Source: Escherichia coli (lineage in GTDB: Bacteria > Pseudomonadota > Gammaproteobacteria > Enterobacterales > Enterobacteriaceae). From it: a stretch of 64,000 nt of DNA. Where the stretch lies: the NCBI RefSeq assembly GCF_001677475.2, contig NZ_CP015229.1; one strand, 5' to 3'. A program made the position numbers and the translations under genes. Under the pieces are notes generated by a model. That model did not search any database and was not told where the DNA came from. It saw nothing but the letters and a program-made list of their open reading frames with translations. Positions 6,733 to 9,700 of this stretch are shown here, one piece after another; positions within the stretch are counted from its first letter, which is position 1, and every line of letters starts with the position of its first letter.

Positions 6733-9700
6733 TTACACCTTTTCCACATTCACAAGGAAGGACTTAAACTCCGGCGTCTGCGTGTTCGCATCACCAACGA
6801 ATGGCGTTAACGTATTGGCAATAAAGCCTTTTTTCGCAACGCCTTCATAGCCCCAGTGAATCGGAATACCGATGGTATCGATATCTTTGCCGTTCGCTTT
6901 CAGCGTGCGAATACGTTTGGTCACCACCGCTTTGGCTTTGATATAGCCACGGTTGGAGGAGACTTTCACGGTATCGCCCTGGGCAATGCCAAGTTTATTC
7001 GCCAGCGACTCACCGATTTCCACAAACTGCTCTGGCTGCAAAATCGCGTTCAACAGCGCGTGTTTGGTCCAGTAGTGGAAGTGCTCGGTCAGACGATAGG
7101 TGGTTCCGACATACGGGAACTTATCGGCTTTACCCAATGCTTCGGCGTCGTCTTTAAAGATACGTGCAGCCGGGTTCGAGATAACGCTTGGATGCAGTGG
7201 GTTAGTTCCCAGCGGCGTTTCAAACGGCTCGTAGTGTTCCGGGAACGGACCTTCCGCCATCTTATCGAGGGCAAACAGACGCCCCATGCCTTCCTGCTGC
7301 ATGATAAACGGCCCGACGCCGCTGCCCGGAGGCGCTGCGCTGTAGTCCGGAATATCCCAGCCGGTCCACTTAGTGCCGTCCCATTTCAGCAACTGACGCT
7401 TCGGATCCCACGGGTTACCCTGCGGATCTGCGGAGGCGCGGTTATACAGAATGCGGCGGTTAAGCGGCCATGCCCATGCCCAGCCCAGCGTGTTACCGAG
7501 GCCAGACGGATCGGCGTTATCACGGCGTGCCATCTGGTTGCCCTCTGGCGTCCAGCTACCGGCGAAAATCCAGCAGCCACAGGAGGTGGTACCGTCATCG
7601 CGCAGTTGGGCGAACGAGCTAAGTTGTTGGCCTTTCTTGACGATAACCGCCCCGGTTGCCGGATCGGTAATATCCGCCAGCGCCTTACCGTTGCTCTCCA
7701 TCGCCACTTCTTCCGACTTCGGCTCATGCGGGATGGCGTAGTTCCAGGTCATGTTCAGCACCTGGTCCGGGTTCGCGCCACCCTGTTCGGCATACATCTT
7801 GCGCAAGCGCAGGAAGATACCGGAGAGGATCTCGCCATCAGTCAGCGCAATCCCCGGGGCGTCCGCACCTTTCCAGTGCCACTGCAACCAGCGACCGGAG
7901 TTAACGATTGAACCGTTCTCTTCCGCGAAGCAGGTCGATGGCAGACGGAACACTTCGGTCTGGATCTTCGACGAGTCAACTTCGTTCAGCTCACCGTGGT
8001 TCTGCCAGAAGTTAGAGGTTTCAGTGTTCAGCGGGTCGATGGTGACGAGGAACTTCAGTTTCGACAGACAACCGATCACTTTGTTTTTGTTCGGGAATGA
8101 GGCAACAGGGTTAAAGCCCTGGCAGATATAGCCATTGACCTTGCCCTCTTTCATCATCTCGAAGTATTGCAGGACGTCGTAGCCTTTATCCCACTTCGGC
8201 AACCAGTCAAAGCCCCAGCTATTTTCCGCCGTCGCTTTATCACCAAAGAAGGCCTTCATCATGGAGACGAAGAATTTCGGGTAGTTGCCCCAGTAGTTAA
8301 CCTGGCCTTCCAGCAGCGGTTTTGGCGTGTTGGCGGTAAGGTAGGTTTGCAGATCGGTCTGCTTCTCGCTTGGCAGCGTCATGTAACCCGGCAGGCTCTG
8401 CGACAGCAGCCCCAGGTCCGTCAGCCCCTGAATATTGGAGTGACCGCGCAGGGCGTTAACGCCGCCGCCTGCCATCCCCATGTTGCCGAGCAGCAGCTGG
8501 ATCATCGCCATCGTACGAATGTTTTGCGCACCAACGGAGTGTTGCGTCCAGCCGAGCGCGTAAAGGAACGAGGCAGTTTTATCGTGAGCACTGGTCTCAG
8601 CGATGTATTCGCAGACTTTCAGGAACGCGTCTTTTGGCGTACCACAGATGTTTTCAACCACATCTGGCGTGTAGCGGGAAACGTGCTGTTTCAGCAAGTT
8701 CCACACGCAGCGCGGATGTTGCAGCGTGGTATCGCGTTTGGCGAAGCCGTTTTCGTCCAGTTCGTAAGTCCAGGAGGATTTATCGTACTTGCGTTTTTCC
8801 GCGTCATAGCCGGTGAACAGGCCATCTTCAAAGCCGTAATCCTCACGCACGATCAGGCTGGCGTTGGTATAGGCTTCGGTGTATTCGCGGTTGAATTTTT
8901 CATTGTTCAGCAGGTACAGCAATACGCCTGACAGGAAAGCAATGTCAGTACCGGAACGAATAGGGGCATAGTAGTCAGCCACCGCCGCCGTACGCGTAAA
9001 GCGAGGATCGATCACAATCAGCTTCGCGCCATTGTGAATTTTGGCTTCCATCGCCCAGCGGAACCCGACCGGGTGAGCTTCAGCGGCGTTACCGCCCATC
9101 ACCACGACGAGGTTGGCGTTCTTGATGTCGACCCAGTGGTTGGTCATCGCACCGCGACCAAATGTTGGAGCAAGACTTGCTACCGTTGGTCCGTGTCAGA
9201 CACGCGCCTGGTTGTCGACCGCGAGCATACCCAGCGCGCGGGAGAATTTTTGCGTTAAATAGCCGGTTTCGTTACTCGACGCGGAAGCACACAGCATCCC
9301 GGTGGAGAGCCAGCGGTTAACAGTCACGCCTTCGGCGTTTTGCGCAATGTAGTTAGCATCGCGGTCTTCTTTCATCAGTTTGGCGATGCGATCAAACGCC
9401 TCTTCCCAACTGATTTGCTGCCATTTATCAGAACCTGGCGCACGGTATTCCGGAAACTTCAGACGGCTTTCGGAGTGGATGAAATCCACCAGGCCAGCGC
9501 CTTTCGGACAAAGTGCACCGCGGTTGACCGGGTGATCCGGATCGCCTTCGATATGGAAGATAGATGCTTTGGCGTTTTTTGCTCCGTCACCGAGGCTGTA
9601 CATCAACAGCCCACAGCCTACGGAACAATAGGTGCAGGTATTACGGGTTTCGCGGGTGCGCAGCAGTTTATACTGCCGAGTTTCCGCGAGTGCTACGCTG

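Follow-up and report, generated by a model that had tools for sequence, protein, structure and literature searches.

A TGA triplet lies in frame within fdoG, the gene for the catalytic alpha subunit of formate dehydrogenase-O (FDH-O), on the minus strand of a 64,000-nt stretch of Escherichia coli DNA (the window). We conclude that this triplet (9198-9196) is codon 196 of fdoG and that it is almost certainly decoded as selenocysteine through a SECIS_3-type hairpin, not read as a stop. The first-pass annotation had attributed the TGA to the selenocysteine recoding of FDH-O, and the position of the codon, shared with K-12 fdoG and fdnG and aligned with the selenocysteine of the structure 1KQF, supports this. 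The selenocysteine codon of fdoG and its SECIS are already known, and the finding is an ordinary one: fdoG has been recognised since the 1990s as one of the three selenoprotein genes of E. coli, and Rfam has a curated family for its SECIS. It is listed among the E. coli selenoprotein/recoding genes (bioRxiv 10.1101/109264), selenium incorporation has been reported for E. coli FDHs in general, and all three of these enzymes, including FdoGHI, coordinate bis-MGD via selenocysteine (PMC6239281). The features of the locus are collected in Table 1.

Table 1. Coordinates of the fdoG locus and its selenocysteine signal in the window
Feature	Coordinates	Strand	Evidence
fdoG CDS, formate dehydrogenase-O catalytic alpha subunit (Sec196 counted)	6733..9783	-	Translation, K-12 identity, TIGR01553, 1kqf_A
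Tat signal peptide region MQVSRRQFFKICAGGMAGTTAAALGFAPSVALA	9685..9783	-	SRRQFFK read from the translation; conserved in the alignment to the FdnG N-terminus
UGA selenocysteine codon (codon 196)	9196..9198	-	Frame, K-12 comparison, alignment to Sec196 of 1kqf_A
Rfam SECIS_3 (RF01989) full match, model positions 1-59	9143..9201	-	Covariance model
Lower helix 5' arm CACGGACCAA, from the first nt after UGA	9186..9195	-	Rfam consensus structure, ViennaRNA MFE
Upper helix 5' arm GG-U-AGCAA, bulged U at 9182	9177..9184	-	Rfam structure, MFE, covariation
Apical loop GUC (G +23, U +24, C +25)	9174..9176	-	Rfam structure, MFE
Upper helix 3' arm UUGCUCC	9167..9173	-	Rfam structure, MFE, covariation
Asymmetric internal loop, 3' side AACAU	9162..9166	-	Rfam structure, MFE
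Lower helix 3' arm UUGGUCGCG	9153..9161	-	Rfam structure, MFE, pairing counts
Near-frozen synonymous block, codons -1 to +21 (SECIS plus ~20 nt beyond its 3' end)	9133..9201	-	Same-codon fraction, identical run
fdoH, iron-sulfur beta subunit	5818..6720	-	TIGR01582, 478.7 bits (cut-off 334.7); synteny
fdoI, cytochrome b556 gamma subunit	5186..5821	-	FdoI equivalog NF007924, 453.3 bits (cut-off 341)
fdhE, formate dehydrogenase accessory protein	4260..5189	-	NF002925, 604 bits (cut-off 426)
fdhD, FDH maturation sulfurtransferase, divergent from fdoG	9977..10810	+	TIGR00129, 338 bits (cut-off 140.9); synteny

The codon, the open frame around it and the orthology of the gene were observed directly. 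In the ORF list, a minus-strand ORF of 195 aa (9196..9783) closes at the TGA, and a second one (6733..9147) follows. The earlier statement that only this TGA separates the two ORFs and that they share a frame proved right: the distance from the nucleotide after the TGA to the end of the second ORF is 9195-6733+1 = 2463 = 821 x 3 nt. The listed start of the second ORF at 9147 is only an effect of the ORF tool, which begins each ORF at its first ATG; the frame itself is open from 9195 onward. Translation from the ATG at 9783 to the TAA at 6733 gives 1017 codons, 1016 of them sense when the TGA is read through, with two stops only, the TGA at codon 196 (...CGT GTC TGA CAC GGA CCA...) and the terminal TAA. 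The product carries SRRQFFK and the N-terminal 4Fe-4S cysteine motif CTYCSVGCG; the Tat signal is presumably cleaved after ALA, as judged from what is known of FdnG. An antisense ORF of 74 aa (9034-9258, plus strand), which matches no Pfam family, was treated as spurious. A match to FdoG1_thermometer in the fdoG 5' UTR (32 against a gathering threshold of 50) fell below threshold and is not claimed.

The window gene is 98.69% identical in nucleotide sequence to K-12 fdoG (b3894), with 2 amino acid differences among 1016 residues. Of the 40 nucleotides that differ, 36 are at third codon positions, a sign of purifying selection on fdoG; the stretch from 60 nt before the UGA to 120 nt after it contains no difference. 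The two genes agree in the position of the selenocysteine codon, in the 60 nt after the UGA, in the operon and in its neighbours. The two halves of the protein match TIGR01553 with 271 bits (N-terminal, profile positions 1-194) and 1276 bits (C-terminal, positions 196-1009; cut-off 814). A PDB search with FdoG, using Cys as a placeholder at codon 196, returned FdnG (1kqf_A) as a full-length match with 1900 bits. Codon 196 aligns with the X (Sec196) of 1KQF in the context ...NQARV-X-HGPTVASLAPTFGRGAMT; the alignment to the FdnG selenocysteine region suggested at the outset therefore places the TGA opposite selenocysteine, and there is no Cys codon at this site.

A genuine nonsense codon would make fdoG a pseudogene or a split gene here, ending in a 195-aa fragment. 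Mechanical ORF calling does yield two ORFs, and both pieces stand as separate entries in public databases. The prediction that ORF callers would split the gene is thereby confirmed, as exact 195-aa and 804-aa fragments have been deposited as separate proteins. (Some of the split fdoG fragments in public databases carry wrong names.) Against a nonsense codon, the identical TGA is found at codon 196 in both K-12 fdoG and K-12 fdnG, 5432 of 5433 E. coli records carry the surrounding block with at least 99% identity, and the 820 codons downstream contain no further stop and encode a product 2 aa from that of K-12. The TGA is also adjoined on its 3' side by the SECIS described below. When one genome from each of 100,044 species was scanned with a sequence pattern, 115 of 120 matches were FDH selenocysteine sites, with ARV before and HGP[TS]V after, and TGA occupies the codon-196 site in 104 FdnG/FdoG-type genes of diverse bacteria across phyla; wherever the retrieved DNA is long enough, the reading frame of these genes remains open for ~800 more codons. 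We consider a nonsense codon extremely improbable and retain the reading as selenocysteine.

The second question is whether the gene is fdnG, encoding formate dehydrogenase-N (FDH-N), which we take to be nitrate-inducible under anaerobiosis. For fdoG, low-level constitutive expression has been described (PMC6239281). PGAP names the orthologous CDS 'fdnG: formate dehydrogenase-N subunit alpha', TIGR01553, the NCBIfam model that scores best, bears the FDH-N alpha name, and FdnG is the best PDB match, with a SECIS that is identical in both paralogues. FdnG tops the PDB search because no FDH-O structure is among the PDB matches. The window gene and K-12 fdnG (b1474; structure 1KQF) do share a 71-nt block, Sec196 and the SECIS_3 family, but overall they are only 74.9% identical in nucleotides and 76.9% in amino acids, against the 98.69% nucleotide identity to K-12 fdoG, and fdnG lies at another locus, yddG-fdnGHI. 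The neighbours of the window gene, fdoH, fdoI, fdhE, fdhD and yiiG, correspond to K-12 b3891-b3896, and this synteny contradicts an assignment to fdnG. The gamma subunit gene also points to FDH-O, as it exceeds the cut-off of the FdoI equivalog and reaches only 243.6 bits with the FdnI equivalog NF007558 (cut-off 339). An identity as fdnG therefore has next to no credibility, and the gene is assigned to fdoG by orthology and synteny.

The arrangement fdhD<>fdoG-fdoH-fdoI-fdhE has the same gene order as in K-12 and VCSW7, and all four neighbours of fdoG exceed their NCBIfam cut-offs. On its left flank, the operon is accompanied by an extra PIN-domain gene, which has no alignment in most of the best E. 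coli matches. [quoted passage not shown]

The SECIS hairpin had been expected in the ~40 nt 3' of the UGA (9150-9195), and the minus-strand prediction that had been suggested located it there. SECIS_3 (RF01989) matched with 84.3 bits (gathering threshold 63; E 1.8e-19), a score to which conserved protein-coding sequence contributes a part, and was found again when the whole window was scanned with Rfam at the gathering threshold. The stem-loop is thus present, and its paired region, 9195-9153, falls within the expected interval. A single copy of the degenerate 20-mer GTNTGACAYGGNCCNWCNGT is present in the window, and none of 100 shuffles contains it; together with the E value of the covariance model, this argues that the match is not due to chance. 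SECIS_2, the fdhF type, reached only 28.1 bits in the window (gathering threshold 70), and the element was therefore classified as SECIS_3.

The upper helix comprises 7 bp with a bulged U at +17 (offsets are counted from the U of the UGA). SelB contacts the bulged U +17, the loop G +23 and the loop U +24 in the SECIS elements described for fdhF and fdnG. In the window, U9182, G9176 and U9175 match these offsets exactly and are predicted to be the corresponding contacts. The apical loop (9176-9174) begins 19 nt from the UGA, which falls within the 16-37 nt published for bacterial SECIS elements (PMC10778597). The 60 nt 3' of the UGA are identical in the window, K-12 fdoG and K-12 fdnG.

The SECIS of fdhF (formate dehydrogenase-H, Sec140; Rfam SECIS_2) is the experimentally dissected prototype. 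It resembles that of fdoG in the start UGA-CAC-GG..., in a hairpin that follows the UGA directly, and in the U +17, G +23 and U +24 at identical distances. When the two sequences are read side by side, the place of the U18-A29 pair of fdhF is taken in fdoG by A18-U30, a compensatory swap. The same direct reading shows that the upper helix of fdoG has one base pair more (A22-U26) and closes on a 3-nt loop, GUC, compared with GGUC in fdhF; the lower helices are unlike in sequence. The proteins differ as well, FdhF being a cytoplasmic protein of 715 aa without the Tat signal of FdoG.

Covariation was evaluated in 73 distinct FdnG/FdoG-type sites from the 100,044-species scan. Pairing in the upper helix reaches 97.5%, with compensatory changes on both sides in 4 of its 7 pairs, including 21-33 (GC/AU/CG), 24-30 (AU/CG/GC) and 22-32 (GC/UG). 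The observed covariation score was reached in 0 of 500 shuffles, and pairing falls to 28-50% when the register of the helix is slid. A blind ranking of 1770 column pairs by mutual information placed 24-30, 21-33 and 22-32 as the top three. The bulged U +17 and the loop U +24 are invariant in the 73 sequences, and at least 90% of them retain the loop G +23. Columns 15 and 36, each the third position of a Pro codon, showed an apparent like-with-like correlation, which was set aside as shared codon usage; it lies outside the top mutual-information pairs.

In the lower helix, the Rfam register shows no compensatory changes among the 73 sequences (pairing 81-84%), and in the window it contains two non-canonical pairs, A-C and A-G, on direct reading. 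The alternative register given by ViennaRNA has one pair with double-sided changes. Two registers are possible and the choice is ambiguous, neither the Rfam nor the ViennaRNA register being backed by covariation in this set. Folding energy was likewise undistinctive, with MFE z-scores of -0.40 (61 nt), -1.45 (49 nt) and +0.11 (86 nt), reaching -2.57 only for the 20-nt upper hairpin. The proven SECIS of fdhF is equally unremarkable (z = +0.08), and we therefore rejected folding energy as a criterion. MFE alone would not have revealed the fdoG hairpin.

These results bear on the possibility that the hairpin is incidental, that the conservation reflects only the active-site peptide U-HGPTVASLAPTFGRGAM, and that recoding needs something else. 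The peptide is indeed strongly conserved, the folding energy does not surpass that of shuffled sequences, and no covariation is seen in the lower helix. However, the pairs of the upper helix covary, and some of these changes replace amino acids encoded by both arms, as in VASLAP (GGCAA/UUGCC) and in two forms of VSSLGP (GUCCA/UGGGC and CUCCA/UGGGG). Moreover, synonymous positions, which are free of protein constraint, are near-frozen: their conservation in the hairpin of enterobacterial loci is 0.96, compared with 0.51-0.53 (~0.52) in the flanks. We regard an incidental hairpin as having a negligible chance of being correct. The family-model match, the covarying upper-helix pairs and the synonymous-site constraint are all direct observations.

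The constraint also refines the expected extent of the signal, since the constrained block (9201-9133) is longer than the hairpin. In 20 enterobacterial loci, the fraction of identical codons does not drop below 0.9 between codon -1 and codon +21, compared with ~0.5 in the flanks. The longest identical run between the window fdoG and K-12 fdnG is the 71-nt block (9201-9131), and this 71-mer, at the identity stated above, occurs at 2 places per genome in E. coli. Beyond the hairpin end at 9153, the constraint runs through six more codons, GCG AUG ACC AAC CAC UGG (9150-9133), and it is seen in the FdnG/FdoG genes of enterobacteria, Burkholderiales and Pseudomonas. It is conceivable, though we think it unlikely, that the FdnG/FdoG recoding signal includes an extra functional 3' module outside the classical SECIS definition derived from fdhF. 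Such a module might act as a lengthened lower helix with the UGA inside it, as a spacer that times the arrival of the ribosome, or as a contact for a protein or the ribosome. The ordinary reading of the extension is a bias toward preferred codons, with only four of its codons being informative.

The decoding mechanism outlined here takes its steps from the established knowledge of E. coli fdhF and fdnG, and by analogy with these genes we expect fdoG to share with them the binding of SelB, the actual incorporation of selenium and the geometry at the ribosome. The specialised elongation factor SelB, carrying GTP and Sec-tRNA(Sec), the product of selC with the anticodon UCA, would bind the upper hairpin through its C-terminal winged-helix domain. 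The arriving ribosome would melt the lower helix, so that the apical hairpin with its bound SelB would stand at the mRNA entrance as the UGA enters the A site. Delivery of Sec-tRNA(Sec) by SelB would then compete with release factor 2, and the selenocysteine inserted would serve as the protein ligand of molybdenum in the bis-MGD cofactor.

In summary, the analysis adds nothing new about biology, and its practical value lies in annotation. As the recoding event is a true one, annotators should join the two ORFs (195 aa and 804 aa) into a single selenoprotein of 1016 residues. RefSeq/PGAP already annotates the orthologue as a single CDS of 3051 nt across the UGA; RefSeq calls it 'fdnG' despite its location in the fdo operon. 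Pipelines that scan genomes can also use the locus as a positive control: its SECIS is picked up by the covariance model, by covariation and by synonymous constraint, whereas folding energy misses it.

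The first-pass annotation had described two minus-strand ORFs of fdoG, the gene for the catalytic alpha subunit of formate dehydrogenase-O, as sharing one frame and being split only by a TGA, which it read as a selenocysteine codon. Translation of 9783..6733 (-) agrees exactly: it is a single frame of 1017 codons, whose only stops are codon 196 (TGA at 9198-9196, in the context GCG CGT GTC TGA CAC GGA CCA ACG GTA GCA AGT CTT GCT CCA ACA TTT GGT CGC GGT GCG ATG ACC) and the final TAA. Both ORFs come from a mechanical list, and the downstream one starts at 9147 because the ORF tool opens at the first ATG only. 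The TGA is likewise codon 196 in K-12 fdoG and in its paralogue fdnG; in fdhF it is codon 140, and the motif ARV-U-HGP is common to the three genes. For a protein search against the PDB, a placeholder residue was put at position 196. FdnG of PDB 1KQF aligned over its full length (1900 bits), with residue 196 opposite the X that denotes selenocysteine in ...VDNQARV-X-HGPTVASLAPTFGRGAMT..., and the next-best structures were all titled 'formate dehydrogenase, alpha subunit, selenocysteine-containing'. The TGA is thus the selenocysteine position, and no cysteine codon replaces it.

The two halves of the gene span TIGR01553, the formate dehydrogenase alpha-subunit equivalog, end to end (profile positions 1-194 and 196-1009), and the one position left unmatched, 195, coincides with the TGA. 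Compared with K-12 fdoG (b3894), 40 of 3051 nt differ (98.69% identity), 36 of them at third codon positions, and the protein carries only two changes, S689K and N866S. The alternative that the gene is fdnG was ruled out because DNA identity to that paralogue is just 74.9%. The assignment to fdoG also agrees with the gene order, which is the same as K-12 b3891-b3895 and as all E. coli genomes sampled, and with the fdoI product, which exceeds the cut-off of the FdoI-specific model and scores 243.6 bits, below the cut-off of 339, with the FdnI-specific NF007558.

RefSeq annotates one 3051-nt CDS across the TGA. The expectation that ORF callers would split the gene held for naive pipelines, as both fragments have been deposited, and not for PGAP, which gives the correct single CDS. 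In exact look-ups, the 195-aa N-terminal fragment was present on at least 1000 contigs, and the 804-aa C-terminal fragment was a separate protein, ANO91852.1, 'formate dehydrogenase [Escherichia coli]'. Misnamed entries occur in the fragment cluster: in Cronobacter and Hafnia, the 195-aa fragment is called 'sulfate ABC transporter substrate-binding protein'. In RefSeq/PGAP the orthologue of fdoG goes by the name 'fdnG: formate dehydrogenase-N subunit alpha' (for example at 4036-7086 of locus L001), and in RefSeq E. coli genomes this 'fdnG' adjoins genes named fdoH and fdoI; the source of the label is the model and not the locus.

The top match in the Rfam scan of the whole window was SECIS_3 (RF01989), the FdnG/FdoG-type element, at 9201-9143 (-) (84.3 bits, gathering score 63, E 1.8e-19), matched over the full length of the model. 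SECIS_2, the fdhF-type model, reached just 28.1 bits, short of its gathering score of 70. The hairpin had been placed within 9150-9195, and the paired region of SECIS_3 (9195-9153) falls inside that interval; its parts are listed in the table, numbered with the U of UGA as +1. U+17, G+23 and U+24, which we take to be the nucleotides contacted by SelB in fdhF and fdnG, stand at the same offsets in fdhF and fdoG. The element is identical to that of K-12 across the SECIS. The distance from UGA to loop, 19 nt, is inside the range of 16-37 nt for bacterial SECIS elements (PMC10778597).

Coordinates of the fdo genes, the parts of the SECIS hairpin and Rfam elements elsewhere in the window
Feature	Coordinates	Strand	Detail
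fdhE	4260-5189	-	NF002925, 604 bits, cut-off 426
fdoI	5186-5821	-	NF007924 (FdoI-specific), 453.3 bits, cut-off 341
fdoH	5818-6720	-	TIGR01582, 478.7 bits, cut-off 334.7
804-aa ORF	6733..9147	-	frame shared with 195-aa ORF
195-aa ORF	9196..9783	-	ends in TGA 9198-9196
fdhD	9977-10810	+ (divergent)	TIGR00129, 338 bits, cut-off 140.9
Lower helix, 5' arm	9195-9186	-	
Unpaired C	9185	-	
GG	9184-9183	-	
Bulged U	9182	-	+17
AGCAA	9181-9177	-	
Loop GUC	9176-9174	-	G +23, U +24
UUGCU-CC	9173-9167	-	
Internal loop AACAU	9166-9162	-	
Lower helix, 3' arm	9161-9153	-	
naRNA4	24563-24640	-	78.6 bits, above gathering
ES036 sRNA	29645-29686	-	41.4 bits, above gathering
ClpQY promoter element	43340-43397	-	63.6 bits, above gathering
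L31 ribosomal-protein leader	48009-48061	+	60.1 bits, above gathering

Folding energy says little about the hairpin: three spans gave z-scores of -0.40, -1.45 and +0.11, the 20-nt upper hairpin by itself gave -2.57, and the SECIS of fdhF, which is proven, had +0.08. Relatives were therefore gathered by scanning the pattern GTNTGACAYGGNCCNWCNGT over 100,044 species genomes, which returned at least 120 loci; the matches listed comprised 104 FdnG/FdoG-type sites, 11 FdhF-type sites and 5 spurious ones. Covariation was counted on a gap-free alignment of 73 distinct 60-mers. The upper helix of the Rfam structure (columns 18-25 with 29-35) was 97.5% paired, and four of its seven pairs change on both sides, including 21-33 (GC 54, AU 7, CG 7), 24-30 (AU 42, CG 25, GC 3) and 22-32 (GC 58, UG 13). 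None of 500 shuffles scored as high for covariation as the real alignment, and pairing fell to 28-50% when the partner was slid by 1-3 columns. When all 1770 column pairs were ranked by mutual information, blind to structure, the top three in order were 24-30, 21-33 and 22-32. Several upper-helix swaps alter amino acids of both arms (e.g. VASLAP vs VSSLGP), so RNA pairing is kept and the protein sequence gives way to it. All of the 60-mers have the bulged U and the loop U, and at least 90% have the loop G. Selection acts on the upper helix and loop. The lower helix is weaker, being 81-84% paired, with an alternative register fitting equally well; the testable defining features are all present apart from covariation here, which is equivocal, the Rfam register containing no compensatory change.

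The same interval stands out at synonymous sites. The longest run identical between the window fdoG and K-12 fdnG is 71 nt (9201-9131), twice the next longest. Of 5433 E. coli records, 5432 carry this 71-mer at 99% identity or more, with two copies per genome, and the 7 kb around it are 95-99% identical within the species. A set of 20 fdoG/fdnG loci from enterobacteria (Citrobacter, Enterobacter, Klebsiella, Photorhabdus, Providencia, E. albertii and others) keeps the window's codon at a fraction of 0.90 or more between codons -1 and +21, counted around the UGA, and at about 0.3-0.7 just outside. Pairwise same-codon fractions for the hairpin, the next six codons and the flanks were 0.96, 0.88 and 0.51-0.53 in enterobacteria, with weaker gradients in Burkholderiales (0.84, 0.76, 0.56-0.59) and Pseudomonas (0.81, 0.73, 0.61-0.64). 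In the alphaproteobacterial group, the hairpin was slightly raised (0.66) and the six-codon tail was not (0.53 vs 0.56). In FdnG/FdoG genes of enterobacteria, Burkholderiales and Pseudomonas, constraint continues past the 3' end of the hairpin over 9133-9150 (-) (GCG AUG ACC AAC CAC UGG). Only four codons of this extension are informative, each a preferred codon, and it showed neither a pairing partner nor covariation; the constraint may be due to preferred-codon bias and is not claimed as a finding.

At the 5' end of the gene, RF02778 ('FdoG-1 5' UTR thermometer') matched the fdoG 5' UTR and start (9754-9952, -) below threshold (32 bits, gathering 50, E 5e-5), aligning well only in the 3' third, with the Shine-Dalgarno sequence and AUG, and poorly in the 5' part. 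Between a yiiE-like RHH gene (3144-3389) and fdhE lie a ribbon-helix-helix ORF (3553-3849, +; PF01402, 27 bits) and a PIN-domain ORF (3843-4223, +; PF01850, 69.6 bits; weak VapC NCBIfam matches only), which overlap by 7 nt and form a VapBC-like toxin-antitoxin pair. In most of the best-matching E. coli sequences, alignment sets in only at about 4198; many E. coli genomes therefore seem to lack the PIN gene. The 614-aa ORF at 651-2495 (+), with a TTG start, had no Pfam, NCBIfam or PADLOC match. No RefSeq complete E. coli genome was >99% identical over window 1-25000; identity reached at most 97.1% across the 25 kb and 98.8% in the fdo region. The 804-aa fragment nonetheless matches a GenBank E. 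coli protein exactly, and the source lineage is either somewhat divergent from the comparison set or missing from it.

The recoding codon, its open frame, the hairpin's family membership and orthology to a known selenoenzyme are established here. By the E. coli paradigm (PMC8124441, PMC10778597), SelB-GTP-Sec-tRNA(Sec) would dock on the apical hairpin via its C-terminal winged-helix domains, the approaching ribosome would unwind the lower helix, and the UGA in the A site would be decoded as Sec in competition with RF2. As no sel or tRNA genes were found within the 64-kb window, the genome's capacity for Sec decoding is assumed. Once inserted, Sec196 would be a ligand of the bis-MGD molybdenum; in all three E. 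coli formate dehydrogenases, selenocysteine ligates the molybdenum of this cofactor (PMC6239281). The TGA and hairpin are the already known fdoG Sec196 codon with its SECIS_3 element, and their value here lies chiefly in annotation and in serving as a positive control.
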